Shown here: positions 7,327 through 57,418 of the stretch, one piece after another
Layout: each line of letters begins with the position of its first letter
Position numbering within the stretch: position 1 is the first letter of the stretch
DNA from: a virus
Taxonomy: Duplodnaviria > Caudoviricetes
Length of the DNA: 64,000 bases
Strand: one strand, 5' to 3'
IMG/VR virus record: IMGVR_UViG_3300048502_000133
Coordinates: 21,431-85,430 of that record
Translations under genes and position numbers: made by a program
The notes under the pieces: generated by a model
What the model was told of the DNA's origin: nothing
Seen by the model: only the letters and a program-made list of their open reading frames with translations
Database searches by the model: none

Positions 7327-7332
7327 GGGGTA

Positions 7333-8625: not shown

Positions 8626-8647
8626 GGGTGCTCCTTCCTTTCGGGTA

Positions 8648-12281: not shown

Positions 12282-12301
12282 CACTCCTCCTTTCATCGGA
12301 C

Positions 12302-13426: not shown

Positions 13427-13619
13427 CACCTCTCCAGCTTCTCCATCCACCCCTTGTAGATCTGCGGAAACACAGGTTGTTTTGCGTGGGTGTTGCAGAG
13501 GTACCAGTCGTACCCGTCTGCATGTTTGTTTCAATCCTCACCCGGCCTTGCGACCGGATGCGACAGCATCAGCGCCAGCGCTTCCAGCTGGATTAGATAG
13601 AACGGCGTGAGCGACCAGA

Positions 13620-31806: not shown

Positions 31807-32519
31807 CGCGATCGATCTCCATTCCGCCGCCGCCGGACACGTCCCGGCTCCATGGAAAGGCGCTGGCAGCCTGGGTATGCTACCGCGACCTGGGCGCGTC
31901 GCGTACCCTGGAGGAGACCGCGACCACGCTGGGCTACGCCAGCCGCGACTCCATCAAGCGCTGGTACCGGGAATATAATTTTCCGGCAATGGCCCGCCAG
32001 TGGGACGCGCACCGGCAAGCGACACTGGACGCCGACGCGCTCAAGCACCAGCAGGAGCTTATCCGGGCACGCCGCGAAGAACGCCTCCAGATAGCGACCA
32101 GTTACCGGATGATGAGCCTGGCAACGCTCAAGCAGCACTACAGTGACGGTACACTGCCGCCCAATGTGGCCCTGGCAATGGCCCAGTTTGCCTCAAAAGA
32201 AGAACGGGCAGATCTGGGCGAACTGGAGACGCGCATCGGTCTGCAGGTGGAGGAGGAAACCGAAGTCCTGCACCAGCCCGCCGGTTCGCCTCTCGCGGCG
32301 CTGCGATCCCTGAGCCCGGAGAAGCGCCAGCTGCTCCTGGAACTCTTGCAGGAAGCCACCGGGTACCGTATGGATGAGGAGGAGGATCTGTTCGATGCAG
32401 CGTACCTAGAGGATGAAAGCGAACATGGAGACGAGCGTAGCGCCGTTCCTGGGCTGGGCCACTCCGGAGCTGCAAGCCGCATATCGGGCGGAACAGAGCC
32501 TCTATCGCTTCGTGCGTGA
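31803..32519 (+). CDS. terS: Terminase small subunit (probable)
   Basis: N-terminal HTH (YRDLGASRTLEETA..IKRW..W..RA..WD); lies immediately before terL. Confidence 0.7.
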   Translation: MTRSISIPPPPDTSRLHGKALAAWVCYRDLGASRTLEETATTLGYASRDSIKRWYREYNFPAMARQWDAHRQATLDADALKHQQELIRARREERLQIATSYRMMSLATLKQHYSDGTLPPNVALAMAQFASKEERADLGELETRIGLQVEEETEVLHQPAGSPLAALRSLSPEKRQLLLELLQEATGYRMDEEEDLFDAAYLEDESEHGDERSAVPGLGHSGAASRISGGTEPLSLRA

Positions 32520-34109: not shown

Positions 34110-35708
34110 ATGCCCAACAACCATCCGCGCGAAACGGCCCCGCGCCAGGAATCGCTGGCAGAGTTCGCGCATACCGTCTCTGACAGCTCCGATCGCCTGG
34201 CGGTTCTGCTCAACGAAGCGCGTGCCCGCGTCTCCCAACGCCCCGATCCCGGTGACCCGCCCGACCGGCCCACTTCCCCGGATCGCGCCTCTGCGGTCAC
34301 CCGCACCACGTACCCGACCGGCGATCAGGGCGGCGATCCCCTGATGAAGTCCAGCTACCTCACGACTGACGTAAGCAACCGCGCCCGGAAGATCTCCCTG
34401 TATCAGGCGTTCCTGGGCGAATCCCCGGTGTCAGGGGCAATTGAAGCTATTGCCGCCCGGCTGGTCTCCGGCGGCTGGGTGCTAAAGCCCGTCGATGCGA
34501 AGCACCCCAACGAAGAGACCAGAGAACCCCTACAAGAACTCCTTGACTGGTGCAACCCGGACGAAGAGTTCGGGCAGATGCTCCACGACACCGCGACCGA
34601 TCTCCTGTGGGCAGGCGAAGCCTACTGGGAAATCACCAGCAAGTCCAGCGTCTACTGGGGGCGGAAAGTCCCGTACGAGCTATTTACGGTAGACCCGATC
34701 TCCATGGATTACGTGCTGGCCCCCAACCGCAAGCAAATAGCGGGCTACGTCCAGCAGGGCGAAGACGGGAAGCCCATCCCGCTCAAGCCCTCGCAGATCA
34801 TCCGCTGGTGGTTTCCGGACCCGCGCAACCGCTTCAAGGCGCTGTCTCCGCTGGAAAAGCTGCTCAACCCCGTGGTCACTGACACGTATTTACAGTTATC
34901 TGATCAGAAATACTTTCAGCAGGGGAACCGCTCCGGTACGGCAATTTTGTTGAAAAACGGCAATCAAGCCCTGGCGTCCCGCCTGCTGCGCTGGATCACT
35001 GAGCAATACCTGGGCGTCAAGAACGCGCACAAGCCGCTGATCCTGTTTGGTGAGCAATCGGACATGGACATACGCGACGTGCCCGACCACAGCTCCATAG
35101 ACGTGGTGGAGCGCCGCAAGTACTCCCGCGATGAAATCCTCTCCGGCTACAAAGTCCCGCCGCACCTGATGAGCGCCCTCGAAGGTACCGGGCAGGGTGG
35201 GCAGGCAGTGGGCGACACCATGGAGAAGCAGTTCGTGCATACGGCTGTGGACCCCATCCGCCAGCGCATCATGAGCAAGGCGACGTTCCGTATCTGTGTG
35301 CAGGGCTTTGGTATTGACGACTGGGTGATCGACACCACGTACGCCGATCTCCGCGACTCCGATAGAGTTCTGGAGAACATGAAGACCCGCATCTTTACCG
35401 GGCTCTCCACCATCAACCGGGAACTCGCGGAGCAAAAGCAGCCGTCCATCGAAGGCGGCGATATTCCCATTCTGGTGCTGGGCTCTACGATTGTCCGGGT
35501 AGATTCACTGCCCAACCTGCCCATGACGCCACCGGCGCCCGGCGGTGCCGCAGGGGCAGGTGGCGACGAAGACCCGACCGGCAGTGGGTTTACGGGAGAC
35601 CCGAAAGACGATCCCAGGGACAAGCAGGCCGCCGCCCAGAAGCCGAAAACGCCCGCAGACGCCAAGGGAACAACGGGTCACCCAACCGGCCCGGACCTCT
35701 CCGATTGA
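34110..35708 (+). CDS. Portal protein
   Basis: PN..EEFGQML..DLLWAGEAYWEI; LSPLE; RDEILSGYKVPP; TINRELAE..P.IEGGD. Confidence 0.92.
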   Translation: MPNNHPRETAPRQESLAEFAHTVSDSSDRLAVLLNEARARVSQRPDPGDPPDRPTSPDRASAVTRTTYPTGDQGGDPLMKSSYLTTDVSNRARKISLYQAFLGESPVSGAIEAIAARLVSGGWVLKPVDAKHPNEETREPLQELLDWCNPDEEFGQMLHDTATDLLWAGEAYWEITSKSSVYWGRKVPYELFTVDPISMDYVLAPNRKQIAGYVQQGEDGKPIPLKPSQIIRWWFPDPRNRFKALSPLEKLLNPVVTDTYLQLSDQKYFQQGNRSGTAILLKNGNQALASRLLRWITEQYLGVKNAHKPLILFGEQSDMDIRDVPDHSSIDVVERRKYSRDEILSGYKVPPHLMSALEGTGQGGQAVGDTMEKQFVHTAVDPIRQRIMSKATFRICVQGFGIDDWVIDTTYADLRDSDRVLENMKTRIFTGLSTINRELAEQKQPSIEGGDIPILVLGSTIVRVDSLPNLPMTPPAPGGAAGAGGDEDPTGSGFTGDPKDDPRDKQAAAQKPKTPADAKGTTGHPTGPDLSD

Positions 35709-36851: not shown

Positions 36852-36907
36852 TCTCCTGACGCGATCCCACCCCTCGCTCCCTGGACAGTCCAAAGGACGT
36901 GCCCTGC

Positions 36908-39001
36908 ATGGCAGCTTCTCAATCGCTTGCACAGATTCTTTTTGATCCGGTCGCCACCACGAGCCCGAACAACCGGCCCTATGTAGACATTGGGAACCTT
37001 TCCAACGCCCCGATCCCGGTCGCGGTTATGTCAGGCGGTACCGCCGCCACGCAGTACACCAGCGCCGCTACGGTCTCCGGCAACCCTACTGGTATGGCAA
37101 TTGTGTTCAACAACGCCGGTACCTGGGCCACCGCTGGCTCCGTTACCCCGCTCCCGATCTCCGGCACCATCACCCCCGGATCGTCTGCCGCCATCAATGA
37201 CGGCGTGGTGACCACCCAGAAGGCAACGGTCGCGCAGTTCCACAACGCCGACAACCAGAACCCCGGCGGTACGGCCTACGGGCTACTCACCGGCGGCGTG
37301 GCCCAGCTGCTCAACATTGACGGCAACATCGATCGTCAGCGTGAGACAGGCACCGATAACGTCCCGGCCCAGGGCATCTCGACCGGATCCATGCAGATGG
37401 CCATGAGTTTCAACGGCCTGATGAGTGTGGACGCGACGGGCGCCGGTGTCCGCACCTTTACCCCGACCAGCCCCTCTACCTCCAACAGCGGCACCATCGC
37501 CGGTGTCCCCTGGTGGATCAAGCCTGGCACCGTTCTTTCCATCGACACCGGCGTCAATCAAGAATGGATCGTGGTCACCGCGACCAACGGTACCGTCCTG
37601 TCCAACGGGCAAGTCGTGACGGCTGGCACCACCTTCCAGGCAACCACGCTGCGCGCGCGCTCCGGTACCACGAATATCCCGTTTACCGGATTTACCTATA
37701 ACCAAGAACGGGACGCCGCCGGTGAGCTGGACGGCGCGACGGGCTCCGGTACCGCGCTGGCTGTCGATTATCTCTACAATGGCGGCGCCGGTGCAACGAG
37801 CGGCAACTACGATCGGGAACGATCGCTCTCCGGCCTGGGCCTGTTCGCGGGTGCCCTGAGCACCGCCACCCAGGGCACGTCAAGCCTGGTCTTCTCCGGC
37901 ACGCCGACCGGCCTGCAGCCCGGCACGCCGATCTTCCTCTACACCAGCTCCGCCGCCGGTACGGTCCCGTCCGAAGTGGTCTACGTCTCCACGCTCTACG
38001 TGTCCGGTACCACCGTACCGATCACCAGCACCATCCAGACCGCCGGTATCACCTACGCCCGCTTCAGCGCCAACAGCGTGATCGGTCCCGGCATCGCGGG
38101 CTTCCTGCCTACGGGCGAGGGCGCCGAAATCGCCGGTATCTTCTCCAACGCCCAGCAGCTGTACTACCTGATCCGGTCTGCCGAAGTAGACGCCATGCCG
38201 CTGGCAAGCGTGCCGATGGAAAACGCCGGGCTGTACAACGGCACCACCTTTGATCGCCAGCGTTCGGTGCTCAGTGACGCCCAGGCAGCCATTGGTATCG
38301 AAGCCGCGACGGACATGCTCTACAACGGTTCGACGTTCGATCGTGCCCGCAGCGCCACTGCGGACGCGATGGCTATCACCGGCGTCGAAGCCGCGTCGGA
38401 CATGCTCTGGAACGGCTCCAGCTTCGATAGAGCCCGTTCTGCGGTCTCCGATGCCCTGGCCACCACCGGCATCGAAGCGGCAAGCGAAATGCTCTGGAAC
38501 GGCTCCAGCTTTGACCGCGCCCGCAGCGCAACGATAGGCGATAACGTGGCGCCTACCGGCATCGGCGCCGATAGTTTCTACGTCGTGACCGCTGCCGCCG
38601 GTGGCGTGGCGTCTCTCTCACCGCTGCGCACCCCATCGGTCTTCAAGACCATTACCGCGACGGCGTCAGGCTCCACCGCGCTGTGGACGCCCGCCGGTGG
38701 GAAAAAGTTCCGCGCGATGCGGTATATCATCGAAGTCACCGGCAACGCCGCGATTGCGTCCGGCGGCGTCCTGACCATCGATCTCCTGGACAGCGCCGCG
38801 TCGTTCAACAACACCCATTCTGTGTGGGTACCGGCGTCGGCCCAGGCCACCACCCCAGGCGGCGGCTTCTCGACCGGCTGGATCGATCTGGGCAACGGCT
38901 ACCTGTCCACAACCGCGAACAACATCCTGAACGTCTCGCTGTCAGCCGCGCTCACCGCTGGCCTGGTACGCGTGACCATAGCAGGCACCGAAGAGTCGTA
39001 A
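36908..39001 (+). CDS. Gly/Thr/Ala-rich beta-structured virion (fibre/decoration-like) protein with 29-aa repeats
   Basis: Composition typical of virion fibres; four (Y/W)NG(S/T)(S/T)FDR repeats. Confidence 0.65.
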   Translation: MAASQSLAQILFDPVATTSPNNRPYVDIGNLSNAPIPVAVMSGGTAATQYTSAATVSGNPTGMAIVFNNAGTWATAGSVTPLPISGTITPGSSAAINDGVVTTQKATVAQFHNADNQNPGGTAYGLLTGGVAQLLNIDGNIDRQRETGTDNVPAQGISTGSMQMAMSFNGLMSVDATGAGVRTFTPTSPSTSNSGTIAGVPWWIKPGTVLSIDTGVNQEWIVVTATNGTVLSNGQVVTAGTTFQATTLRARSGTTNIPFTGFTYNQERDAAGELDGATGSGTALAVDYLYNGGAGATSGNYDRERSLSGLGLFAGALSTATQGTSSLVFSGTPTGLQPGTPIFLYTSSAAGTVPSEVVYVSTLYVSGTTVPITSTIQTAGITYARFSANSVIGPGIAGFLPTGEGAEIAGIFSNAQQLYYLIRSAEVDAMPLASVPMENAGLYNGTTFDRQRSVLSDAQAAIGIEAATDMLYNGSTFDRARSATADAMAITGVEAASDMLWNGSSFDRARSAVSDALATTGIEAASEMLWNGSSFDRARSATIGDNVAPTGIGADSFYVVTAAAGGVASLSPLRTPSVFKTITATASGSTALWTPAGGKKFRAMRYIIEVTGNAAIASGGVLTIDLLDSAASFNNTHSVWVPASAQATTPGGGFSTGWIDLGNGYLSTTANNILNVSLSAALTAGLVRVTIAGTEES
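38231..38530 (+). repeat. Four tandem 87-nt (29-aa) coding repeats
   Basis: Units start at 38231, 38318, 38405 and 38492: L(Y/W)NG..FDR.RS...DA.A.TG(I/V)EAA..M. Confidence 0.9.
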
Positions 39002-42346: not shown

Positions 42347-43222
42347 ATGGGCTACGCACCGACACGCTTGATTCCTGTCCCGGAGACGGTGCGGCGATCC
42401 GCCCGGCTGGTGAGCCTGCATCCCCGCCTGTCTCCGCATGGCAGGCACGCCGCCCGCCTGCTCACGACGCGCGCCAGCGTCTCCCGCCAGTTCCTGTCCC
42501 GGATAGCCCAGGAAATCGAGGCGGCAGACCCCATTGAATCCGCTGCCTGGGGTGGTGGTGCCGCGCGGGCCTGGATCCGCCGCGTCTACCTGGAAGAGCG
42601 CCTGGCGTGCCCGGATCCGGTCGATCTCCGCCCGCTGCTTCCGCCTTCGCTGGCACTGGTAGAATCTACCGGGCCGTTACCCATCCATGAGATCACGCTG
42701 GCCGGGCCTGGCTCTGGGCAGGAGCACCTGGCAACCATGCGCCGCACCGCCGCGCCGGTAGTTTCTACCGATCATGGGCTCTCCCCGGACTACGACACGA
42801 TCATCCGATCGGTGCATCATGCGCTTTCCACCGGGCGATCGGTCGCGCTGACGTATCTCCACACGAACCCGATAGAGACCTACGAAGAGAGTATTTTACC
42901 CCAGATCATCAAGACCGGCGTACCGGCGCCTGTCGATGCCCACGTAGACGGGCATCGACAGGCACAACAGACGTTCAAGAAGCTCTCCCGGACCTATCTT
43001 GGCACGTCAGACCCCAGGGTGAGCCTGTCAGCCCTGGACGTGTCCGACCGGACCAAAGACCCCGCACCGGCGGATATGCGCCTGCTGCGCGATCTGCCGC
43101 TCCACTCGCGCAGTGAACTCCAGGCAGGATGTAATCACGTATTGGATCGTGCCCATGCCGAAGGAACTCTCTCCGACCGACTCCGTAACCAATGTCGATC
43201 CGGGGACCAACCCGGAGGGTGA
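42347..43222 (+). CDS. Head-module protein: N-terminal phage AWGGxAxxxW domain fused to degenerate zeta-toxin-like domain
   Basis: SAAWGGGAARAW; C-terminal half aligns with 45343..46539 but the P-loop is LAGPGSGQEH (no Lys-Ser). Confidence 0.6.
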   Translation: MGYAPTRLIPVPETVRRSARLVSLHPRLSPHGRHAARLLTTRASVSRQFLSRIAQEIEAADPIESAAWGGGAARAWIRRVYLEERLACPDPVDLRPLLPPSLALVESTGPLPIHEITLAGPGSGQEHLATMRRTAAPVVSTDHGLSPDYDTIIRSVHHALSTGRSVALTYLHTNPIETYEESILPQIIKTGVPAPVDAHVDGHRQAQQTFKKLSRTYLGTSDPRVSLSALDVSDRTKDPAPADMRLLRDLPLHSRSELQAGCNHVLDRAHAEGTLSDRLRNQCRSGDQPGG

Positions 43223-45342: not shown

Positions 45343-46539
45343 ATGGCTGTCTTGACCACCGGCGCCCGCCGGGTGCTCCTCGCGGGCATCGTGGCCAGTC
45401 TCCAGGAATCCGGATCCACGCACTGGGTCACTCTCAAATCCAGCGCCGGGCTGGTTACCCACGTCTGCGTGGACGCCTCCGGCACGATCACCCATGGGCC
45501 TGGGCATCTGCGGGGACACAACATCAACCACCTGCCCGCCGCGCCGCCGCGTACCTCCGGCGACACGAAGACGCATACGTCCAGTAAAAAAGTATCCGGA
45601 GATCTTCCGGCGGAAGTCACGCACCATGCCCCCGGCGCGCCCGCGCCCGCCGGTGCCGCGCACTTTGGCGATGACGAGCCCGCTGGACCAGTACCGGACA
45701 GCTCCCCGGAGAGCGCGCAAGCTGCCTACGGCGCCGCCCATAGCGTGCTGGTCGCGGATACATCCCCGGAAATCCACACGTCGTTCAAGTCCTGGGTCAC
45801 CGGCAACATGCAGCAGGCGGTCGCGGCGTATCGCAAGCGGTTCGGCAACGTGATCAATGTCGATGACGCGCGCGAACTCAGCCCGGACTACGCCCACTCC
45901 AAAGAATCCCGTACTGCCTTTGCCAACGCGGTACAGAGCGGCGCCGGTGAGCTGGCCTGGAACGCCTACACACAGATGCTGGAGGAGCCCCCACCTCCCG
46001 GAAAATCGCCGCTGGTTGCGTTTCTGGCAGGCGGTGCCGGTTCGGGCAAGTCGAGCGCAGTCGGCAACGTACCGGGCCTGAATAACACCATAGCGCACGC
46101 CCACATTGTCTTCGACTCCACCATGAGCCGCCTGGACGACGCGGTAGAGCGCATCAACATGGCCCTGGCGGCAAAGCATGACGTGCTGATCGCCTATGTC
46201 CATCGTGACGCGGTAGACGCCTTCACCAACGGCAACCTGCCCCGCGCGGAAAATGACGGGCGAACGGTCCCAATCGCCTACCACGCCGCCGGGCACGCGG
46301 GCGCCGCCGAAGTGATCCGGGCGCTGCAAGAAAAATACAAGGGTGACAAGCGGGTAGAGATACGCGCCATCGACAACTCACGCGGCAAGGGCAAGCAGGC
46401 GGAAGTCCCGCTTTCCGCGCTCTCGCATGTGCAGTACAACCAGGAAGCACTCACCAACCAGCTGCACGAAGAGCTGGAGAAAGCACACCATGCCGGGGAA
46501 ATCTCGCGCCGGGTCTACGCTGCAACCCGGTCCCGATGA
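45343..46539 (+). CDS. Shared N-terminal domain plus zeta-toxin-like P-loop kinase
   Basis: FLAGGAGSGKS; VINVDD; IVFDSTM..IAYVHRD..R...GRTVP..H; leader ends LQE|S followed by the 39-aa shared motif. Confidence 0.8.
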   Translation: MAVLTTGARRVLLAGIVASLQESGSTHWVTLKSSAGLVTHVCVDASGTITHGPGHLRGHNINHLPAAPPRTSGDTKTHTSSKKVSGDLPAEVTHHAPGAPAPAGAAHFGDDEPAGPVPDSSPESAQAAYGAAHSVLVADTSPEIHTSFKSWVTGNMQQAVAAYRKRFGNVINVDDARELSPDYAHSKESRTAFANAVQSGAGELAWNAYTQMLEEPPPPGKSPLVAFLAGGAGSGKSSAVGNVPGLNNTIAHAHIVFDSTMSRLDDAVERINMALAAKHDVLIAYVHRDAVDAFTNGNLPRAENDGRTVPIAYHAAGHAGAAEVIRALQEKYKGDKRVEIRAIDNSRGKGKQAEVPLSALSHVQYNQEALTNQLHEELEKAHHAGEISRRVYAATRSR

Positions 46540-46732
46540 CAAAGCACCGCGCGTCCCGCAGCATATCAAGGACGCGATCATGGGCCAGCTGGTAGAGAAT
46601 TTACGCCAGGCAAGTCTGGATCCGGCCTATGAAGAAAAGCGCGCCGACGCCCGCCAGCGGGCATCAGATAGTATGACGAACCGCGCGCCGCGCGCACCCG
46701 ACGCGGCCCCCACACAAAAACCCAAACCGTAG
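46490..46732 (+). CDS. Small protein overlapping the zeta gene 3' end (possible antitoxin/partner)
   Basis: ATG 46490 with GGAG upstream; 80 aa. Confidence 0.45.
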   Translation: MPGKSRAGSTLQPGPDDKAPRVPQHIKDAIMGQLVENLRQASLDPAYEEKRADARQRASDSMTNRAPRAPDAAPTQKPKP

Positions 46733-46865
46733 GCGATCAGCGATTACGCGAACGCTATTGCACTGTGCCCGTGCCCGGTACGGGCCAGCGGCGCCCGTAC
46801 ATCCGGTGTACGGACCAGCGGCGCCCGGATCTACCCCGCCAACTAATACCCCCTCTGGAGGACCG

Positions 46866-49800
46866 ATGGCCCTATACCACGCCTTTGCGGAAATCCGGCG
46901 CGACCTTGCACGCCGTCTGCAAGAATCCGGCGGCGGGCACTGGATAACGCTGGTGTCCGATGAAGATATTGAGACGCACGTATTTGTCGGCGGCGGCGGG
47001 CAGATCACCAAAGGCCCCAAGCATCTGGTAGGCGCCAATATCGCGCATCTTCCCGCCCCGCCCCATCATGGGGATGTTATCTCCGGCGGCAAGAAGCCCA
47101 GCAAGGTGATCGAGCACAAGCCCGGCACCAAGGGGGCAAAAAACGCCGCCAAGAAGGCGACGGAGCACCCTAGCTACCACGAACACCAAGAGACGAAAAC
47201 CGCGCACGTCTACGGCAAATGGGGTCCAGGCGTCGGCTATGACGTGCAGGTAGACAACCCGCTCCCTGAAATGAGCGCGGATCACGCGCACCTGGGCTAC
47301 CAGGCAGCCGTAGACGAACAGAAGCTCAAGGCGGGCGGGCTCCACCACGCAGGCATCGCTCCGGCACTGGAAGCCCGCACGCACAACGAAATCACCGCCG
47401 CCCAGCACGAAGCGCTCCGGCATGGCCTGCTGGCGGGAGATCTCCATGAGGCCAACTTTGCCGACACACTGGCCGGGCACAAGAGCGATCACGCCCTGGC
47501 GAAGAAGGTCGCGCACGACGCGATCGACGCGCACGTCAAGGCGGGCGCCCTGGAGCAGTCCACAGCGGAAGATCTCCACGCCGGGCTGGATATGGGCCTG
47601 CTCACGCCCGCACAGATCCACGCCGGGAATGACCACGCCATGCAGCAGCACCTGGCGGGTATGGCCCAGGCGAAGCAGCACAAGGCGCTGCAGGACGCGC
47701 ACGCGGCGGTAGACACCGTAGGCCCGAACTCCCCGTTCAACGCGGTCAAAGCCCACGCCGATCTTGACTCCGGCACCGTCTCCCCCGAAGAGATGCTGGA
47801 GAAGGTGGACAAGCTCAAGAAGATGGAAGCGCACCAGGCGCTGACCAAAGCAGAAGTCCAGGGCATCTTCGATACGCCAACGACGCCCGCCGATCTCGCG
47901 CAAAAACTGCATCAAGATCTCACCAACGGCGACATGAGCCCCGAAGCGATACACGCGGAACTGGCAGACCAGAAGGCTGCCTATACGGCGCATGTGGGTT
48001 CGTTCCTGGACACGGAGCACCAGGCAGGCAACCTGGGCCTGACCGACGCCGACGCGGCGGATCTCAAGGCTGCCCTGCAGAAGGGCGACCTCACGCCGCA
48101 GTACGTGCATGGCGTGGTCAAGCAGCTCAAGGCCGCGAACGACCAGAGCAAGCTCATGGACGACATGAACAAGGCCCACGATACGATCGACGCGGTAGTC
48201 TCCGCCGGGCTGGTCCCGTATCACCTTAGCTCCCTGCACCAGCAGGCTGCGGCAGGTGACACCGCAGGCGTCTACAAGACCCTGGAAGAGCAGGCGGCGC
48301 TCTTTACCGCGAACGAAGACGCGCTCAAGGCGATGGTCAAGGCAGGCACGCTGACGCCAAGCGAAGCCGACGACATTAAACACAGCATCCTCTCCGGCGC
48401 AACCCCCAATACCGAAGACGCCGCCGGAAACGCCGCCAATCTGGTGACAGAGCAGAAGATCAAGGGCGCGCACGATCTGCTGCAGCAGGCATACGACCAT
48501 GGCGCGATCGGGCTCTCCGCGAAGGGCCACTACCAGACCTCTCTCCTGACCGGGCTCAAGAGCCCCCAGGAAATCTCCAGCCTGCTGTCCACGCAGTACG
48601 GGTATACCCCGGAGACCGCCGCGACCGCGCACGCGATCGACGCCGCCAAGCAGGCGGGCCAGATCACCTATAACCAGGCATCGGATCTGCAGGATCTGGT
48701 CTTCAACGGCTCCTATTCCCAGGAGTACGTCAAGGACAAGCTGCAGGAGATGATCGGCGGGCACGACGCCCTCCACAACGCGGTAGACGGCGCGGTCAGC
48801 GCGGGCATCCTGGATCCGGACACCGCGACCTACATCAAGGAAGGCGTCCACAACGGCAACGTCACGCCCGGCGAGGCCCAGGAGCTTATCCAGACCCTCA
48901 CGTCTGCGGTAGACCAGACCAACGCGGCGGCACACACAGCGGATCAATCGACACTCGCGCCGGTCGCGGTGCCCATGGACGGGCACGCCGGTATCGACGC
49001 GCACCACCAGGCGGGCATCATCACGTCAGATCATGCCCACGATCTCCACGACTCACTGGACGCGGGGTTTATCGATCAGCAAGATCTCAACGCCATGCTG
49101 GGCTCCGCGAAAGCCGCCCACGACGCCCAACAGGAAGTCGCCGCACACACCGGCACGCTCCAGCAGGCGATAGACGACGCGCACGCCGCCGGAGGCATCG
49201 ACGCCGCTACCCACCAGCTCCTCCATGGGCACCTGGCGCATGGGTCCATGAGCCCGGAGGAAGTCTACGGCGCCCTGGGCAATCACATGACCGGCGCCGC
49301 CGCAGCGGATCTGATTCCACCGCTCGACACCCGCCCGACGCTCAACATGGCCCAGTGGTCCAAGAAAGGCAACGACGCCGCGCAGAAAGTGTGGGACAAG
49401 CACCACTCCAGCGAGGAAACCGCCGCGAACCGGGTCAGCAAGCGCCTGCAAAAGCTGATTACGCCGCAGGAGGCCGAAGCGCTCCATGACGCGATCGTCG
49501 GCGGCACCTATGGCGGAGGCTACAAAACCTACCACCCCGGCAACCCTCACGCTGCCCTGGCACGCCTGATTACAGAGCACTGGAACGCTTCTTCCACGAA
49601 ATTAGGCTCCCTGGTAGGGATGCACGCGGTTACGGATGAGTTCGGGCTTCCCGGCTTCCAGAACGATCCGGGCATTGGCGATGCGGACTACAACACCGCC
49701 ACCAAGATCTATAAGCAGCACACCAAGGCCGCCAGGGCCTGGGCGCGCGCGGTCTACGATGAAACACAGTCACACTTTGCCCAGGAAGGCGTTACGCACG

Positions 49801-51482
49801 TCTCATTGGCGCGCGGCGGCGGCGTGTGGGGCGAAACACCAGGAAGTAAACACAAGGCTCTGCAGGACGCCGCAGCGGAAGCAGGGTTCGGCAATGCTGC
49901 GGTCGCGCACGTTGCCGCTGGGAGTCACTATCAACGCCCGCTGGCCAGCTGGGCGTTGAACCAGGGCTTCAGCAAGGAAGGCAACGGCGAAAACGGCGTT
50001 ACCCACATGGCCACCTTCCCGGTCTCGCACATCTTCTCCCACTCTGGATCCGGGCCAGGCACCAGCTACGAAGTAGAGTACGTCCCTATGGGGCATAACC
50101 AGGATCACCTGGTCATTCGCGGCGATGATGCCCGGCGCGCACTGGTCACAAAGATCCAGAAAGGCGAAGGCGTCTCGATTCAACCAGGGCAGGGCGGCAA
50201 GGCGTCACTGCTGGGCAAGGCAGACTACGATCCGAACACAGAGTACGCCGAAGGGCCGTACGCCGCCGGTGCGAAGAGCCCCGCCGGTGTGCCGTTAGCG
50301 TCCGGCGCGCACGCCGCAGGGAGCCCCGCCGGTACGACCCCCAAGAAGCCCGCCAAACCCAAGACCAAAGAGCAGGAAGAAGCCGCCTTCAACAAGTCCC
50401 TGGCGAAACTGGGCGTGGATCCGCACAAAGTCCCTGAATACGGCAACATGACCGTCCCTACCGCGCTCAAGCACGCCCTGGCAGCGGGTCATATCGACAA
50501 GGCCGAACACGACACCATGCACGCCAAGTGGAAGAGCAAGTACGCCTCGAAATCCAGCGTCATGTACGCCCTGCAGCAGCTGAGTTACAACCACCTCCAC
50601 AAGCAAGCGCTCCACCACATCACCGGCGCCCTTGCCAACGGAGAGATTACCGGCCAGCAAGCCGTCCACTACCTGGAGCAGATCCAGCACCAGTCCTACA
50701 AGCCCGCGCTCACCGACCTTGCCCCGAAGGACAAGACCCACGAAGGCGCGCGGGCGTTCTCACTGGCAACCGCCTATGAGGACGCCGGACACATCTCCGG
50801 TAAGCACCTGGCGCATATCGCCCAGGCGCTGAATGATGAGCCCAATAGCACCATCGAAAAGCACCTCTCCAAGTACTACCAAGGTGCTGATAACACCCTG
50901 ATGAACTACCAGGCCAGCACTGCCGCGAAGACGATCGCGCACGCCGCCTTCAACAGCCAGCCCGGTACACACGCGATCAGCAACGACCACATCAACAACA
51001 TCATGTACGACCTGAACCACCACGCGACCGACCAGGCCAGTTTCCATCTCCTGGCGCATCTGCTGCCCAGGGGCGGCACCCTGGGACCAACCGCGTTGCA
51101 GCACGTCGAACGCGCCCACAGCGCCGGGCACCTGACCTACCAGCAGCGCATGGCGCTCAGGTCCGGGCTACTCAGCGGCGACACAAGCCCCGACGCCGCG
51201 CTGCACACGCTCAAGACGGAACATAACTACGACGCCGCCAACCCCATAGGGACGCACGTAGGTGCCAACCAGTACCCGGCGGAGTCCAGTTCAATGATCG
51301 CCAAGCAGGCCCTGGCAAACGCTCTGGCGGCAGGCCACATCACCCCGCTGGAGCACGACGCGCACCTGAACAGCCTCAAGGGCACCGTCTACAGCGACAA
51401 AATCCCAGATCTTCATACCGCGCTTGCCCATGCCGCCACCGCGCACCAGGCGAATCAAACGCACAGCACCCAGGCAGCCTAA
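46866..51482 (+). CDS. ~1540-aa His/Ala-rich protein: shared N-terminal domain, helical repeats, ADP-ribosyltransferase-like domain
   Basis: GGAGG RBS; VSLARG..PLASW..YEVEY (R-S-ExE); more than 12 A..AG.I/L repeats. Confidence 0.75.
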   Translation: MALYHAFAEIRRDLARRLQESGGGHWITLVSDEDIETHVFVGGGGQITKGPKHLVGANIAHLPAPPHHGDVISGGKKPSKVIEHKPGTKGAKNAAKKATEHPSYHEHQETKTAHVYGKWGPGVGYDVQVDNPLPEMSADHAHLGYQAAVDEQKLKAGGLHHAGIAPALEARTHNEITAAQHEALRHGLLAGDLHEANFADTLAGHKSDHALAKKVAHDAIDAHVKAGALEQSTAEDLHAGLDMGLLTPAQIHAGNDHAMQQHLAGMAQAKQHKALQDAHAAVDTVGPNSPFNAVKAHADLDSGTVSPEEMLEKVDKLKKMEAHQALTKAEVQGIFDTPTTPADLAQKLHQDLTNGDMSPEAIHAELADQKAAYTAHVGSFLDTEHQAGNLGLTDADAADLKAALQKGDLTPQYVHGVVKQLKAANDQSKLMDDMNKAHDTIDAVVSAGLVPYHLSSLHQQAAAGDTAGVYKTLEEQAALFTANEDALKAMVKAGTLTPSEADDIKHSILSGATPNTEDAAGNAANLVTEQKIKGAHDLLQQAYDHGAIGLSAKGHYQTSLLTGLKSPQEISSLLSTQYGYTPETAATAHAIDAAKQAGQITYNQASDLQDLVFNGSYSQEYVKDKLQEMIGGHDALHNAVDGAVSAGILDPDTATYIKEGVHNGNVTPGEAQELIQTLTSAVDQTNAAAHTADQSTLAPVAVPMDGHAGIDAHHQAGIITSDHAHDLHDSLDAGFIDQQDLNAMLGSAKAAHDAQQEVAAHTGTLQQAIDDAHAAGGIDAATHQLLHGHLAHGSMSPEEVYGALGNHMTGAAAADLIPPLDTRPTLNMAQWSKKGNDAAQKVWDKHHSSEETAANRVSKRLQKLITPQEAEALHDAIVGGTYGGGYKTYHPGNPHAALARLITEHWNASSTKLGSLVGMHAVTDEFGLPGFQNDPGIGDADYNTATKIYKQHTKAARAWARAVYDETQSHFAQEGVTHVSLARGGGVWGETPGSKHKALQDAAAEAGFGNAAVAHVAAGSHYQRPLASWALNQGFSKEGNGENGVTHMATFPVSHIFSHSGSGPGTSYEVEYVPMGHNQDHLVIRGDDARRALVTKIQKGEGVSIQPGQGGKASLLGKADYDPNTEYAEGPYAAGAKSPAGVPLASGAHAAGSPAGTTPKKPAKPKTKEQEEAAFNKSLAKLGVDPHKVPEYGNMTVPTALKHALAAGHIDKAEHDTMHAKWKSKYASKSSVMYALQQLSYNHLHKQALHHITGALANGEITGQQAVHYLEQIQHQSYKPALTDLAPKDKTHEGARAFSLATAYEDAGHISGKHLAHIAQALNDEPNSTIEKHLSKYYQGADNTLMNYQASTAAKTIAHAAFNSQPGTHAISNDHINNIMYDLNHHATDQASFHLLAHLLPRGGTLGPTALQHVERAHSAGHLTYQQRMALRSGLLSGDTSPDAALHTLKTEHNYDAANPIGTHVGANQYPAESSSMIAKQALANALAAGHITPLEHDAHLNSLKGTVYSDKIPDLHTALAHAATAHQANQTHSTQAA

Positions 51483-51493
51483 AGGAGGCGAGA

Positions 51494-54271
51494 ATGGCAG
51501 ACGGTAAGTGGGTCACGCTCAAGTCACACACCGGCATGGTGACCCATGTGCATCTGGACGACAGCGGGAACATCGACAAAGGCCCGCACGTCCTCCTGGG
51601 GCACAACATTGCGCATCTCCCGGCGAGTCCCAGTTTTCCCACGCACCCGCAGCATGGCGGCGCGCTTCCCCACAGCATGGACGATCTCAGCCCGTCAGCT
51701 GATGGACCGGGTATGATGAACGAGATCCTGGCGAAGCAGCACCCGGACTATGCCTACATGGCACCGGGCCACCCGCTCCCGGCCAAGCACCAGGACCAGG
51801 CACCCGGCGCCTATCACCAGGCGCTGGACCAGCAAAAGAACGTCAGTAGTTTACAGTCCACCCCTCCCCCTGCTGCACCGACGCCCGCCGGTACGGACTA
51901 CAACCAGGGCGAACACGCAGCGAAAGCCCAGGCCGCGCTCAAACACGCCTATGACGAAGGGGCGCTGACCACCGGCTCTCACGCGTCCCTGATGAAGAAA
52001 CACGCCGCAGCGGAGATGTATAGTCCCCAGGAGGCGAAAGACGAATACGACCGGCTGATCCGGGTGGGCGAACGCGCCCGCGCGCTCCAGCACCTGGACA
52101 CAGCGGTCAACAAGGAAGAGCTACCGCAGCGCATCGCGGATGAGATCAAGCTGGAGCTGCAGGGCAGCAAGCGCTCGGACCAGCTGGCACTGATGCACGA
52201 ACTCCTGGCAACGAGGGTCGCGGAGAACGCCGGGCATAAGGAAACCGCGACGAACATCCTGAAGGATGCCGCGAACAGCGGCTTTGGGGACGCCGAACTG
52301 ATGCCCCACATGCAGGCACTCCTCTCCCCGAAGAAGAACGTAGACTACCAGGGCATCGGTACCGCGCTCAACAGTCAGCTCAAGGAGAAGGTCAAGAACG
52401 ATGCGTTCACGCGCGGGCTCCTGGGCCAGCAAGACCTGGAAGAGCTGAACAGCGGCGACACGCCCACCCTCTCCGCGAAATCGCTTCGGCTGCAGATACG
52501 GGCGTTGTCCTCCATGCACGCCCTCACCCGGATCGGGAATCTCCCCGCAGGGCCGATCAAGACCGCCGCCCATAACGCGTTTAGCCGGGCGCTGGGCATC
52601 GACATACCGGACGAAAACACCGATGAAGGGCGCGGGCAGGTGGCACACGTCGCCAAGCTGCACAAAGCCCTGGGCCTGTTTGAAAAACAAGCCCAGCACG
52701 ACGCCCAGGCATCCAGCCTTCAGGACAAGACCGCATCGGCGCAACTAGGGGCGGTACAGTACAAGGGCAAGCTGGCCCAGCTGGCGGCGGCGGGCGCCGC
52801 TGGCGACACGATCCACCAGAGCAATAAATCTTTCGGCACGCCGAATACCGCCCCGACCTGGCACTTTTCGGTGTCCGGCGTCCCCGGCGGCGCCGGGCCG
52901 CATGAGCACGCGTCGTTCGCGAAGTCCGTCGCCCACAGCACCAGTACGCTGACGCCCGCAGTCATCACCGCGACCAAGAAGGTGGAACAGGCGGGCTTGT
53001 ACAAGCCTGACGGGAGCCTGTACAAGCCGCAGCAGCTCAAAGCCTCCACCTCCAAGACGCTGGGCGACCGCTTCAAGAAAGCAGGCATCACCGCCGATCA
53101 GGCAACCGCGCTCTACAACGTGATGGGCCTGTACGACAACTTCCACAGCGATCCCCATGAGAAACTGGCCAGCGGTATCTTGCAGCGCTGGCAGCATCAG
53201 GTTTCCAACAGCGTGGGCTCCTCCGCCATCCAGCAGGCAGCAAGCGAGTTGTTCGGGACGACATGGTGGAATGGCAGCAAACCACCGTTTGTTACCCAGG
53301 AGAACTACGATCAAGGCAGAGCGATCGCCGCGAACCCGGCCTACAGCGCCCCGCTCAAGGCCGCACTCAGCGAAATCTACAACAACACCCAGGAGTACTA
53401 CAAAGCGCGGGGAATTACGCACGTCGCGGTCGCGCGCGGTGTCAAGCGGCTCAAGCACCCCGCCTTCCAGCAGGCGGCACAGGCAGCGTTCGACAGCGGG
53501 AAAGACAGCATCACCTACCAGCTGGAGCCGGGCTCCGCCGATGAAATACCGCTCTCCAGCTTCGCCACAGACCCCATGGTCTGCATCGGCAAGGCGGACA
53601 ACCCCTACAAAACCAGCATGAACTTTCAGGTACCCAACGGCAACGACGTAAGCTCCGGCGGCATCAGTACAGTGCTCTACGCGCAGATCCCGGTAGAGCA
53701 CATCTTCAGCTGCCCGCATACAGGTCAGGGATGCCTGGGAGAGAGCGAGGTAGGGGTGCTGGGGCACGCGCGCGCCTATACGGCCATCGCCGCGAAGGGC
53801 AGTCTGGAGCCGTATGTGCCGATTTTCAAGAAGATTCAAACAAATGGCTACACGCCGCCTGCAGAATCTGCCATCATAGGCAATACCAGGAGTGTTTCTG
53901 AGGCGTCCCGGCGCCCGAAACGCCGCGTATGGCTTGACGCTGGCAGCCCTGAGAACCCGGATTGGATTAAAATGGGCCGCTGGGACTTCCATGGCACACC
54001 CGAAGAGCAGGCAGAGCAGGTAATCGAGGGGGCAGACCCCAAGGACGCCCAGGCAAAACTGGATGCCTTCCTGCGGACGCCCGCCGCCGCGCCTATGCCG
54101 GAATACGTCCGGCACGCACTGCGCAAGAAGGGGCTTTCGGTTCCGAATGGCCCTACCCTGGGGCGCGAGGACAAGATCGGTGAAACGGCACTTGCCGCAC
54201 ACAACGCCGCCCGCGCGCAGATCAAGGCCGATCTCCAGAAACGCCTCTCCCGCCATCTCCCCCCATCCTAA
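51494..54271 (+). CDS. 925-aa protein: shared N-terminal domain, helical region, ADP-ribosyltransferase-like domain, small C-terminal module
   Basis: AAGGAGG RBS; VAVARG..PLSSFAT..IPVEHIFS..GESEV (R-S-ExE). Confidence 0.78.
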   Translation: MADGKWVTLKSHTGMVTHVHLDDSGNIDKGPHVLLGHNIAHLPASPSFPTHPQHGGALPHSMDDLSPSADGPGMMNEILAKQHPDYAYMAPGHPLPAKHQDQAPGAYHQALDQQKNVSSLQSTPPPAAPTPAGTDYNQGEHAAKAQAALKHAYDEGALTTGSHASLMKKHAAAEMYSPQEAKDEYDRLIRVGERARALQHLDTAVNKEELPQRIADEIKLELQGSKRSDQLALMHELLATRVAENAGHKETATNILKDAANSGFGDAELMPHMQALLSPKKNVDYQGIGTALNSQLKEKVKNDAFTRGLLGQQDLEELNSGDTPTLSAKSLRLQIRALSSMHALTRIGNLPAGPIKTAAHNAFSRALGIDIPDENTDEGRGQVAHVAKLHKALGLFEKQAQHDAQASSLQDKTASAQLGAVQYKGKLAQLAAAGAAGDTIHQSNKSFGTPNTAPTWHFSVSGVPGGAGPHEHASFAKSVAHSTSTLTPAVITATKKVEQAGLYKPDGSLYKPQQLKASTSKTLGDRFKKAGITADQATALYNVMGLYDNFHSDPHEKLASGILQRWQHQVSNSVGSSAIQQAASELFGTTWWNGSKPPFVTQENYDQGRAIAANPAYSAPLKAALSEIYNNTQEYYKARGITHVAVARGVKRLKHPAFQQAAQAAFDSGKDSITYQLEPGSADEIPLSSFATDPMVCIGKADNPYKTSMNFQVPNGNDVSSGGISTVLYAQIPVEHIFSCPHTGQGCLGESEVGVLGHARAYTAIAAKGSLEPYVPIFKKIQTNGYTPPAESAIIGNTRSVSEASRRPKRRVWLDAGSPENPDWIKMGRWDFHGTPEEQAEQVIEGADPKDAQAKLDAFLRTPAAAPMPEYVRHALRKKGLSVPNGPTLGREDKIGETALAAHNAARAQIKADLQKRLSRHLPPS

Positions 54272-54295
54272 CACCCCGCTCAAGGAGGAGTACCC

Positions 54296-55846
54296 ATGCA
54301 CCTCTCAGAAGCTCTCCCCTCCCCGCAGGTGGCAGGCGCGGTGAAGGAGAAAGGGCCAATCTACGCGAAGATTCGCGGAACGTGGCTCAAGAAAGATTCC
54401 CTCTCGCTCAACAACCGCTTCTATCCCGCCGCGACGGTAGAGGCAGCGGTGGCCAGCGCCCAGCGCCGGATCGCGGACGGCGCGCTTCCGCCGATCAAGA
54501 TGATGAGTTCGCACGCCGCCGGGGACGCCGATAGCGTCTACGACACCGTAGGCAAGCTGACCAAAGTGTGGTTGGACGGAGACGACGCCTGGTATGAGGG
54601 CGAGATACCGAACACGAGTGCTGGCCGCGATCTGGCAGCGCTTCTGCAGGGCGGCTTCCATGACGGCGTATCGCTCTACGCCGAAGGTGGGAGCGCCGAA
54701 GTGGCAGAGGGTGAAATGAACGGCAAGCGCGTGTCCATCGTCAAAAAGATGGAGCTGGAGCGCCTGGACCATACCGTCCGTCCGGGCGTCAAGAGCGCGC
54801 GCAACCGGGAAGTCGTGATTCTGGAATCAGTAGACCCTGCCCGCGTCTCTGAGATCACGCCCGCCGCCCCGAAGCCGTTCTCCGCGTTTGACCCGTTCTA
54901 CCAGCAGATGCTGGACGCGATCACCGGCAAGCCCACCAGTGCTGATGATGTCTATCAACCCGAAGCCGCGATCCCACCGGAGAGCGCCGCCGCGCCGCCC
55001 GCAGACCTCACGCCAACATCCCCACAGGAGAACGCTATGGCTGGCACCACGCCGGATCTGGCTGCCCAGATCGATCTGATCCTTGAGGAACGACTTCAGG
55101 CGCTCAATGTGCCCGCCGCGACCCTGGGCGGTGCGCTGGATAACCTGATCACCTACCTTGCCGCTGACAGCGTGCAGGAAGAGGGCAGGATGATCTCTGC
55201 CGACAACCGGCAGAAGCTCTCCGCTGCCCATGACCACATCGCCGGTATTCTGGGCATGGACTGCGCGGGCGGGCAGGACGAAGGCGAGGGCTCAGACGAT
55301 GAGCCCGACGATCGCCCGGAAGACGACACCGATCCGGACGGCGAAGACGCCATGGACGACAGCGAAGGCAACAACGCCGGAGCCGACGCCCAGCGCAAGC
55401 AGTTCAAGGGCGCCAAAGCCCGCAAGGCAGCCCAGGAACGTCAGGCCCCGATTCCGCAAGAAGCCCTGATCGCGCGCGCTGTTGCCGCAGCGCTCCGCGA
55501 AGCCGGGGTGACCCCGAAGACGCCGCCGAAGCCCGCCCGTCCCGTCGATCCGGTGACCGCGCAGCTGGCAGCGATGCAGGCCCAGATCACCGCGCTCACC
55601 GAAGCCATCCCCAACGCGATCAAGGTCGCGGAGAAGGCAAGCTGGCGCCAGAACCCGAAGCGACAGACCCAGATCGTGGAAAACGACGACGCGGCGCCTG
55701 GCGACGGGCCGATCCGCGAACGACAGGATGCCTTGACCGCGCGTATGGCCGACAAGAACGTACCGATCGAACGCCGCGTCCATGAAGCCGCGATACTCAT
55801 TGAACAAGCGCTCAAGGAGCGCGATGAAGTGATGGGTATCTTCTAG
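54296..55846 (+). CDS. T4 gp21-like prohead protease fused to scaffold region
   Basis: [36 protein letters not shown] resembles gp21 (NKRLYP..GVSSRG..D..P); acidic and coiled-coil C-terminus; directly precedes capsid. Confidence 0.8.
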
Positions 55847-55960
55847 TACCTGTCCCCCGTAGGTACTCTTCAGCGACCCCCCTATGGTGCCCACAGGCAT
55901 CCCCGCCTGTCTCTTCGGGACACCGCCCCTCATCCCTCCCATTGTTGGAGGACATGGTAC

Positions 55961-57418
55961 ATGGCCGGTTTGCAAGACCTTCGCGAAGCTATCACCCTTG
56001 GCAGCGGTGCTGGCCCGCTAGTCCAGAAGATCATCTCTCCGCTGTTGCTGGAGTACGTCCGTAAATTCGCCCCGCTCCGCGTGGCCCTGCCCACGCAGAC
56101 CTGGGATACGGACATTTACTTCTTCAACCAGCGCACCGCTCTGCCGCAGGCCCAGTTCGTGCTGGAGGCGCCCGGTACATACACCGGCACCACCGGCTAC
56201 GTTGCCCCGACCACCAGCACCTACCAGCAGCTCCAATTCCCGATCAAGCACTTCCAGAGCAACGGCGACGTGTCGCTGTTCGCCCAGAAGGTTGCCCGCG
56301 TCAACGGCAGCTTGCTTGACCTGGAAATCGAAGGCGCTGTCCGGTCGATGGGCTGGATGGAAGACCTGACCCATATCTTCGGGTCTGCCGCCGCGACCAT
56401 TCAATCCTACCGGCCCGCCTGGGACGGTTTCCGCCAGCTCACCGCCAGCCAGAATAAGATCGACGCCACGCAGCTGGGTACCAACGGTGTCCTGACGCTG
56501 CCCATGCTCGACTCGCTGATCGACGCGATCAGAACGCCCCTGGCTGCCAACCCCCAGGACGATAGCTTCTTCTTCGTGATGAGCCCGAAGATGCAGTCCC
56601 GCCTGGTCCAGCTCACCACCCCCATCACCCGTCTTGGGCTGGAGCGCCGACCCTTCAAGCCGATGAACGATGGCGGCGCGATGGGCGCCCCGGTGACCGT
56701 CGATAACAGCGATCCGGGCGTGGAAGTCTACAGCTACCGGAACATTCCGATCGTGCTGTCCAGCTTCCTCTCTACCCCCGGCGCGATGGGCGCGGTCTCG
56801 CTCTCCGCCAACGCCACCGCAAGCACCCTGCCCGCCACCACCCGCTACTACCGCGTCACTGCGGTTACCGTCTACGGGGAGACGCTAGCCAGTGCGGAAG
56901 TCTCGATGGCCCCGACACTCAACCAGTCCATCCAGCTCACCTGGAGCACCCCGACCATCATCGATCCGGCAAGCGGTGCCACCCTGCCAGTGCTGTACTA
57001 CTGCATCTGGGAAGGCGCCACCACCTTGACCGAAACCCTGCTGGCCATTGTCCACGCCTACACCGCAACCGCCCCTGAAACCCCCGTCACCAGCTGGATT
57101 GACTCCGGCGCCGCCACCTCGTCTACCGGCGGGCTCCAGGGTACAACCCCCTACTGGCAGGGCGGTGCCAATGGCGACGGGTACACCTACCCGAACGTCT
57201 CCGTTGCCGGTAACCCGAACGGCTACGGGTCTGAGCAAATCTATCTCGTAACGCGTGACCCGAACTTCGTGGTTGTGCCCCGCGTGAACGATCTCACCCC
57301 GCAGCTGTTGGCACTCGTGAACGCCCGTACGCGGCAGTTCGCGGTGACCGCAGACGAAGTGCTTGCAGTACGGGCGGGCGCGTTCCTCTCGACTCTCCAG
57401 CGTGTACGCTACGCATAG
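55961..57418 (+). CDS. Major capsid protein with Ig/FN3-like insertion
   Basis: HK97-type layout after protease; insert YYRVTAVTVYGETLAS..QLTWSTP..YYCIW..WIDSG. Confidence 0.85.
   Translation: MAGLQDLREAITLGSGAGPLVQKIISPLLLEYVRKFAPLRVALPTQTWDTDIYFFNQRTALPQAQFVLEAPGTYTGTTGYVAPTTSTYQQLQFPIKHFQSNGDVSLFAQKVARVNGSLLDLEIEGAVRSMGWMEDLTHIFGSAAATIQSYRPAWDGFRQLTASQNKIDATQLGTNGVLTLPMLDSLIDAIRTPLAANPQDDSFFFVMSPKMQSRLVQLTTPITRLGLERRPFKPMNDGGAMGAPVTVDNSDPGVEVYSYRNIPIVLSSFLSTPGAMGAVSLSANATASTLPATTRYYRVTAVTVYGETLASAEVSMAPTLNQSIQLTWSTPTIIDPASGATLPVLYYCIWEGATTLTETLLAIVHAYTATAPETPVTSWIDSGAATSSTGGLQGTTPYWQGGANGDGYTYPNVSVAGNPNGYGSEQIYLVTRDPNFVVVPRVNDLTPQLLALVNARTRQFAVTADEVLAVRAGAFLSTLQRVRYA

Follow-up and report, generated by a model that had tools for sequence, protein, structure and literature searches.

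The window analyzed here covers the final 64 kb of a virus record of 85,430 bp from IMG/VR (IMGVR_UViG_3300048502_000133; classed as linear and ~79% complete), and three of its genes, encoding proteins P0001, P0002, and P0003, share an N-terminal mini-domain of ~45 amino acids (aa). We put the probability at about one-half that this mini-domain is a portable head-incorporation module of injected effectors, which in this window would be encoded unfused by three genes; both the packaging and the binding are steps that we infer. The three proteins look like unfused polyvalent proteins with one payload per gene. According to the mechanism that we propose, the genes would encode late-expressed effectors of the head module, namely, a zeta-type kinase and two divergent R-S-ExE ADP-ribosyltransferase (ART)-like enzymes. 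During assembly, the mini-domain would dock its carrier on the portal-proximal interior of the prohead, either on the portal or on the core/scaffold, and the docked enzymes would be enclosed in the capsid, from which they would exit with the DNA and act at once in the next host. Leaders of 17 to 22 aa may be removed at LQE/S (the slash marks the putative cut). The portal-proximal prohead interior is the suggested shared site of action because one and the same module recurs on effectors, at the portal C terminus, and on protease/scaffold polyproteins.

A mini-domain shared by three adjacent genes

The three genes and their conserved segments are located as follows.

45343 to 46539, plus strand: gene 1 (P0001, 398 aa), with a 22-aa leader, mini-domain, Pro-rich linker, and zeta-type kinase
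45400 to 45549, plus strand: mini-domain copy 1 (P0001 residues 20 to 69; profile E value, 2e-33), with SLQE/SG upstream
46866 to 51482, plus strand: gene 2 (P0002, 1538 aa from ATG 46866)
46917 to 47066, plus strand: mini-domain copy 2 (profile E value, 1e-32)
47166 to 47264, plus strand: second conserved segment after the mini-domain, HPSYHEH ... VYGKWGPGVG ... VDNPL (from alignments with relatives)
51494 to 54271, plus strand: gene 3 (P0003, 925 aa), with the mini-domain from residue 2 (MADGKW), a helical region, an ART-like domain, and a C-terminal tail
51497 to 51634, plus strand: mini-domain copy 3 (profile E value, 5e-30)

A reading of the letters alone (here, the sequence-only reading) had pointed to three 39-aa peptides, encoded at 45421 to 45537, 46938 to 47054, and 51506 to 51622, that align without gaps and are each followed by a Pro-rich linker. 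Translations and recomputed coordinates bore this out, and the linkers read HLPAAPP, HLPAPPH, and HLPASPS. A wider alignment has 50 columns, 20 of which are invariant, and a single gap, of 3 residues, where P0003 begins. The BLASTP E values were 4e-13 for P0001 and P0003 (66% identity over 41 aa), 3e-14 for P0001 and P0002, and 3e-9 for P0002 and P0003, and a profile made from the three copies had exactly three matches along the full virus record (E values, 2e-33 to 5e-30). The consensus of the mini-domain is [HRK]-W-[IV]-T-[IL], a variable loop, and G-T-H-V-x-[IV]-D-x-x-G-x-I-x-K-G-P-x-x-L-x-G. In the AlphaFold2 (AF2) model built from a 36-row alignment, three antiparallel strands are followed by an ordered tail, and the confidence with which this small fold is predicted (predicted local distance difference test [pLDDT] score, 87.9) points to a folded module, not a linker or a short leader.

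P0002 consists of a 17-aa leader ending in RLQE/SG, the mini-domain, the second conserved segment, His/Ala-rich helical repeats, the ART-like domain, and further repeats. The second segment is common, whole or in part, to the relatives P0004, P0005, P0013, P0028, P0041, and P0095, with the consensus HPxY(T/H)EH ... VYGxxGPGVG ... V(D/E)NPL in P0002 and its closest relatives. Since this segment follows the mini-domain, the shared N-terminal module of the P0002 subfamily amounts to ~110 aa.

The mini-domain family is apparently unannotated, without a Pfam model, and would be a new element. When the isolated mini-domain and seven short family members were compared with Pfam at E values of ≤10, nothing matched the mini-domain; the scan gave only a chance DUF6897 match (E value, 0.15) and LPD3 elsewhere in P0046. 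No PHROG matched P0001 to P0003. For the mini-domain structure, Foldseek found nothing significant in the PDB, the wide VIA-align search reached a maximum Z of 3.4, and the best BFVD match, a DUF5710 protein (E value, 0.026), was not significant. An ESM Atlas feature search gave no usable match, and the viral structural look-alikes that it returned (ddrB-ParB, Phage_portal_3, and DUF2213) are leads only. Searches of cultured phages by tblastn with the 50-aa domain, its consensus, and the domain protein of locus L007 yielded no useful match, and neither did a megablast search with the 8.9-kb region. A DNA-binding function is unlikely (median isoelectric point, 6.5; net charge, -1 over 66 instances), and a distant relationship to MuF was rejected (hhalign probability, 0.15%). 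The predicted complex of the portal (17-row alignment) and the mini-domain (36-row alignment) scored 0.00, a value that counts neither for nor against binding.

Family size, copy number, and companion domains

When 1.84 billion representative proteins were searched with the profile, 74 matched at E values of ≤1e-3, 12 of them at ≤1e-10, and most were long phage-type polyvalent proteins. The W, the G, and the G-P pair are invariant in the family and the T nearly so, and H and K are present in 86% and 67% of the instances, respectively. Among the 68 other proteins, 29 have one copy of the mini-domain, 21 have two, 15 have three, and 3 have four, and the first copy lies within residues 1 to 100 in only half of them. 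In multicopy proteins, the copies are found between payloads, spaced by 200 to 600 aa, and often directly upstream of an ART domain. One extra protein, P0095, was found with the domain alignment and has a 2H domain first and the mini-domain downstream. The proposal that the shared element is an N-terminal tag of the T4 capsid-targeting sequence (CTS) type did not hold: it is a folded beta mini-domain, internal in half of the relatives, often in two to four copies, and sometimes placed after the payload.

A census of Pfam companions covered 40 of the 74 family proteins and listed 25 families. Across this census and the other family members examined, the effector or polyvalent domains found in the same chain were LPD1/3/5, ART-PolyVal, ADPrib_exo_Tox, 2H ligase-like, InPase, PBECR3, Zeta_toxin, and DarA_C (one protein), together with type IB topoisomerase (Topoisom_I), SNF2/Sno helicases, ATLF-like peptidase, GNAT, and RelA_SpoT. 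Head proteins were also present in the same chain: Portal_Mu (three proteins), Phage_portal_3 (one), Phage_Mu_F (two), and Mu-like_Pro (one). No conjugation domain was among the 25 families listed.

The main alternative explanation gives the mini-domain a boundary or processing role, in which it would mark the sites where multi-effector head proteins are cut or separated, or makes it a fold-independent spacer between payloads; capsid entry would then depend on leaders, helical bodies, or MuF-like partners. We regard this as unlikely. It would account for relatives in which one to four copies, 200 to 600 aa apart, lie between enzymatic domains, and proteolytic processing of polyvalent proteins is proposed by Iyer et al. 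(PMC5512222). In the close subfamily, moreover, a motif resembling the T4 gp21-type L/I-x-E cut site, [LVI]-[RQ]-E-[ASG], sits 4 to 15 residues before the invariant Trp: SLQE/SG in P0001, RLQE/SG in P0002, and VRE/A or LRE/A in P0009, P0028, P0034, P0041, P0048, P0064, and P0073. P0003 and P0005 start right at the mini-domain, without a leader, as a cut product would. The leaders of P0001 and P0002 could be removed, or they could themselves be the CTS-like part. However, the same position is occupied by R-Y-x-x-x-[HRK]-W in other subfamilies, so the upstream motif may be structural, and the portal fusions L004, L009, and P0019 do not have it. The types of prohead protease also differ among the carriers (S77-like here, Mu I-like in L005, and PHROG 530 in L009), which makes one common cut module unlikely. 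A mere cut site does not need a confident fold, and the [LIV]-x-E-[AS] count in P0001 to P0003 is not above the expectation from composition.

Association with head-assembly genes

Eighteen loci were fetched from IMG/VR with a degenerate DNA pattern for the mini-domain core, and within viral contigs, all 18 were true instances. The same pattern, applied to 185,579 bacterial and archaeal genomes, gave one true instance only, on a phage-like contig of a metagenome-assembled genome. Wherever the flanks could be read, the domain gene adjoins head-assembly genes (portal, MuF, or protease) or is fused to them, in the following arrangements.

L007, L012, and L019: TerL, portal, and domain protein, followed in L007 by a MuF-like gene
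L009, L010, L015, L016, and L023: TerL and a portal-domain fusion, followed in L009 and L016 by MuF and protease
L006: fusion of portal, domain, and ART-PolyVal
L004 (P0025): fusion of portal, domain, and a P0002-like part
L005: portal, a small gene, a 1598-aa protein (domain at its start, Mu-type protease/scaffold at its end), and the major capsid protein
P0019: portal, domain, and protease in a single chain
L011: portal, then three domain genes in a row, encoding a 2719-aa Sno-type helicase polyvalent protein, an intein-containing protein, and a RelA_SpoT protein

The closest parallel to the three-gene set of the window is L011. This locus occupies positions 1 to 13897 of a 103-kb IMG/VR contig, and the intein in its 945-aa middle gene product consists of Hint and a LAGLIDADG homing endonuclease. 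The L009 fusion shares only its portal part with cultured phages.

The sequence-only reading had suggested that homologues of the motif should be sought for payload diversity and head-module location. Both were found, and the refuting pattern named in that reading was not: the payloads are highly variable, and the readable loci lie at portal, MuF, or protease genes. Because the family is nearly absent from the bacterial genomes scanned with the pattern, has no conjugation domains among its listed companions, and neighbors head genes, it looks phage-specific and head-linked.

In the window itself, the head-module genes are as follows.

31803 to 32519: small terminase TerS (clear identification at the Pfam/PHROG level)
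32413 to 34098: large terminase TerL (clear identification at the Pfam/PHROG level)
34110 to 35708, plus strand: portal (Pfam Phage_portal, E value of 8e-24; PHROG 12, E value of 7e-32)
54296 to 55846, plus strand: probable prohead protease that may include a scaffold part (match to PHROG 207, head maturation protease, with an E value of 3e-8)

The three genes had been placed between portal and prohead protease, and they do lie there; the protease is weakly supported, however, and the portal is followed by 9.6 kb of other genes.

A further link to the portal comes from the 2H phosphoesterase domain. The portal relatives P0079 to P0082, P0089, and P0090, which have 41% to 60% identity to the window portal and include its four closest relatives, are fusions of 696 to 839 aa with a C-terminal 2H phosphoesterase (PF13563) joined via a Gln-rich linker, and the mini-domain is absent from them. 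The window portal has no 2H extension. In the clade of this phage, 2H occurs in two settings, as a direct fusion to the portal and, in the separate protein P0095, together with the mini-domain; both settings would lead to one compartment by different routes. This equivalence of the payload on the portal or on the mini-domain supports head incorporation as the role of the mini-domain.

The same neighborhood could be read structurally. The three proteins might be structural or assembly parts of the prohead core that the mini-domain nucleates on the portal, with secondary or inactive enzyme domains and no injection. We consider this quite improbable. Its favorable evidence is the position of the genes directly 5' of those for the protease and, presumably, the capsid protein, the predominance of long helical repeats in P0002 and P0003, and the presence of the mini-domain at the head of the protease/scaffold polyproteins in L005 and P0019. 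It is opposed by the dominance of effector-type enzymes in the family and by the intact catalytic motifs, that is, the Walker A motif and the R, S, and ExE residues that are invariant in five ART-like homologues.

Payload domains of the three proteins

The domains identified downstream of the mini-domains are as follows.

45844 to 46521, plus strand: zeta-toxin-like P-loop kinase domain of gene 1 (residues 168 to 393; phmmer against 6eph, E value of 1e-8)
49407 to 50117, plus strand: ART-like domain of gene 2, with R at 49806 to 49820 (LARGG), S at 49941 to 49955 (LASWA), and ExE at 50067 to 50081 (YEVEY) as candidate catalytic elements
53066 to 53827, plus strand: ART-like domain of gene 3 (residues ~525 to 778; R648, S689, E750, and E752)

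The zeta-like kinase that had been proposed for gene 1 was confirmed by a match of P0001 to Pfam Zeta_toxin PF06414 (E value, 7e-10; 39.1 bits against a cutoff of 22.3). By sequence, the payload is a zeta-type kinase: residues 168 to 393 align with the solved Neisseria gonorrhoeae Zeta_1 toxin (6eph), and an intact Walker A motif (GGAGSGKS; 46030 to 46053, residues 230 to 237) is aligned with GIPGSGKT of 6eph. A 291-aa protein encoded upstream (42347 to 43222, plus strand) is a paralogue of the C-terminal half of the kinase (BLASTP against P0001, E value of 3e-11) and has no Pfam match.

The two ART-like payloads also stood up. The central domains of P0002 and P0003 are paralogous (BLASTP E value, 4e-9), and homologues are found in the metagenomic proteins P0013, P0028, and P0041, each with a mini-domain near the N terminus. 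In the alignment of these five sequences, the Arg (THVxLxRG), the Ser (PLxS[WF]), and the ExE motif are invariant. The AF2 model of the P0003 domain (pLDDT, 72; predicted TM score, 0.74) places the Arg on predicted strand 1, the Ser on predicted strand 2, and the ExE motif just before a later predicted strand. In an exhaustive VIA-align search with this model, R-S-E mono-ADP-ribosyltransferases occupied 13 of the 14 top rows, with Z scores of 4.4 to 6.0. The top match was HopU1 (Z score, 6.0; root mean square deviation, 5.2; 179 aligned residues), and the others included ART2.2 (5.2), ExoS (5.2), iota-like toxin (5.0), VIP2 (5.0), and C3 (4.4), as well as a Listeria ART-ARH toxin, the ART toxin/immunity pair 6drh, C2-I, Certhrax, Vis, and SpvB.

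Other searches with these sequences gave little. Foldseek with the ART model retrieved nothing from the PDB at E values of ≤0.001, and P0002, P0003, P0013, P0028, and P0041 had no ART or other Pfam match at ≤0.1. The ART-like core showed no similarity to ART-PolyVal and ADPrib_exo_Tox examples in an hhalign comparison that involved very few sequences. A homologue search with the ART region of P0003 returned P0003 itself only, and among cultured phages, P0003 matched only Bacillus phage HSE3, in which the ART core has a counterpart in a hypothetical protein. As judged from the alignment and the model, the ART-like domains of P0002 and P0003 are divergent, have kept the catalytic signature intact, and fall outside the curated ART families.

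Both P0002 and P0003 are made up mostly of long helical repeats. P0002 contains 7.6% His and 16% Ala, and its body (47600 to 49400 and 50500 to 51480) has at least 13 copies of an ~50-aa helical unit centered on G-x-[LIMV]-[ST]-P, of which GDMSPEAIHAEL and GNVTPGEAQELI are examples; this repeat body could be rod or core forming. An ART family that is invisible to Pfam and resides on long His/Ala-rich helical-repeat bodies appears to be new.

Evidence weighing against head incorporation

Several observations speak against the mini-domain as a head-incorporation module. (i) It is internal or present in multiple copies in half of the relatives, and in P0095 it follows the payload; being often internal and repeated and able to follow the payload, it is no simple N-terminal address. 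(ii) The closest portal relatives have portal-2H fusions without it, so it would be dispensable for portal-linked cargo. (iii) MuF genes coexist with it in related phages, and it is therefore no plain substitute for MuF. (iv) In the window, the three genes are 9.6 kb away from the portal, and the protease call is weak and probable only, since the match of 54296 to 55846 to Pfam Peptidase_S77 (E value, 3e-4) is under the family cutoff. (v) The ART assignment depends on modest Z scores (≤6.0) and a five-sequence alignment, with no Pfam ART model. (vi) The presence of P0001 to P0003 in virions is what we infer, not a direct observation.

The last point also favors the view that the proteins stay unpackaged, acting at a late stage in the cell that makes them or once it has lysed, as host takeover enzymes or toxins, and that the domain serves regulation, chaperoning, or oligomerization. 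Zeta kinases and ARTs do act as cytoplasmic toxins too. We nevertheless find this view very improbable, as the repeated fusion of the mini-domain to portal, MuF, and prohead protease and its constant placement in head modules would be hard to explain.

Head incorporation could also be formulated more broadly. The mini-domain may be a self-sufficient and widely portable capsid-loading handle, distinct from both the T4 CTS and MuF and used by many unrelated tailed phages, which would dock any attached protein, whether effector or scaffold/protease, to the portal-proximal prohead interior. We hold this wider version to be possible but on balance doubtful. If it is true, attachment alone would load a protein into the capsid and deliver it with the DNA, and a handle sufficient for loading could serve, in laboratory phage-bacterium systems, to place proteins of choice inside phage particles.

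Comparison with known systems

To our knowledge, the selection of enzymes for the capsid is understood for a few models only, namely, the T4 CTS, SPP1 gp7/MuF, and P1 Dar. In T4, Alt, IPI-III, and gp67/68 are CTS proteins and are cut by gp21 at L/I-x-E. Here, as in T4, an ART is among the proteins that would be loaded into the prohead beside an S77-type protease and injected, with the S77 assignment in the window being weak, and the short leaders of P0001 and P0002 end in LQE/S, whereas P0003 has no such leader. Unlike the ~10-aa leader of T4, however, the shared element is a folded and widespread ~45-aa domain that is often internal or repeated. For the cargo of the P1 Dar system, we know of no shared tag. 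The Dar proteins (DarA, DarB, DdrA/B, and Hdf) are separately encoded anti-defense proteins that are copackaged in the head, and T4 Alt is cited as well in the same source (PMC5512222). The window resembles P1 in having several separate proteins, and DarA_C occurs in mini-domain carriers, but P0001 to P0003 have no sequence relationship to the Dar proteins.

Phage-type polyvalent proteins, as described in PMC5512222, carry ART, zeta kinase, 2H, RelA/SpoT, PBECR, InPase, DarA, and SNF2 payloads, and some are fused to portal or MuF. They are encoded in portal-terminase head modules and are predicted to be delivered along with the DNA (PMC5512222). The window genes are likewise in a portal-terminase head module and draw on the same payload repertoire, and the mini-domain co-occurs with LPD1, LPD3, LPD5, ART-PolyVal, PBECR3, InPase, and DarA_C. 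The difference is that P0001 to P0003 each have a single recognizable enzymatic domain, not two or more: Pfam identifies one domain in P0001 and none in P0002 and P0003, to each of which the fold search adds one ART-like domain. The mini-domain is not mentioned in the searched text of PMC5512222.

MuF polymorphic toxins combine a conserved head-associated module with variable toxin domains and are encoded in the packaging/head module, and SPP1 gp7 is located in the capsid, bound to the portal (PMC5576092). According to PMC5576092 and PMC5512222, 2H, ART, zeta, RelA/SpoT, and PBECR domains are known on MuF and portal fusions. The mini-domain proteins are similar in that variable payloads (zeta kinase and ART-like) accompany a conserved head module. 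However, MuF toxins are mostly prophage borne (PMC5576092), whereas the mini-domain family is nearly absent from bacterial genomes in the pattern scan, and no MuF domain was detected in the window with Pfam, PHROG, or a small local hidden Markov model.

The known kind to which the window genes seem to belong is thus that of polyvalent, MuF, and portal-fused effectors, and what appears to be new is the split arrangement into three genes, each headed by a common mini-domain. Dozens of different effector enzymes carry this small and sharply conserved mini-domain, as do portal, MuF, and protease proteins, which makes it a candidate for a general loading or processing signal, and it would offer an annotation handle for packaged anti-defense and host takeover enzymes in metagenomic phages. 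With this locus, the list of likely injected enzymes grows by a very divergent ART family and a phage-borne zeta kinase.

Locus layout and neighboring genes

The GC content of the window is ~63%. Its large terminase most closely resembles the Roseobacter and Paracoccus phage enzymes (41% to 46% identity), which suggests an alphaproteobacterial host. The ~9.6 kb between the portal and gene 1 contains unannotated genes, of which some may be encoded on the minus strand. Each of genes 1 to 3 has a strong Shine-Dalgarno site: AGGAGG lies 7 nucleotides (nt) 5' of the ATG of P0001, GGAGG lies 5 nt 5' of ATG 46866 of P0002, and AGGAGG precedes the ATG of P0003. A TTG start for P0002 at 46758 was rejected in favor of ATG 46866 with its GGAGG. 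No promoter-like site and no plus-strand terminator-like site were found in the scan of 42 to 56.2 kb, which, together with the strong Shine-Dalgarno sites, fits a single late head operon.

A few further features of the region were noted. A 700-aa plus-strand open reading frame (ORF) 3' of the portal (36899 to 39001) has no Pfam, PHROG, or PDB sequence match. In the protease gene, [LIV]-x-E-[AS] motifs number 5 against 1.5 expected (motif count over 54296 to 57418). The 485-aa protein encoded downstream of the protease, which had no Pfam, PHROG, or PDB match, has such motifs at residues 7 and 67. The T4 gp23 propeptide is cut near residue 65, and the motif at residue 67 recalls this cut. A small plus-strand ORF (46490 to 46732) overlaps the end of the kinase gene, with a likelier start at ATG 46581 that would give ~50 aa. 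Between genes 1 and 2, at 46760 to 46830, there is a GC-rich repeat in which CCAGCGGCGCCCG occurs twice. Finally, the AT skew of the plus strand is 0.22 to 0.33 over 46000 to 56000, the region of the three genes and the protease, and near 0 to 0.1 elsewhere; the positive skew probably reflects the His/Ala/Gln-rich coding composition.

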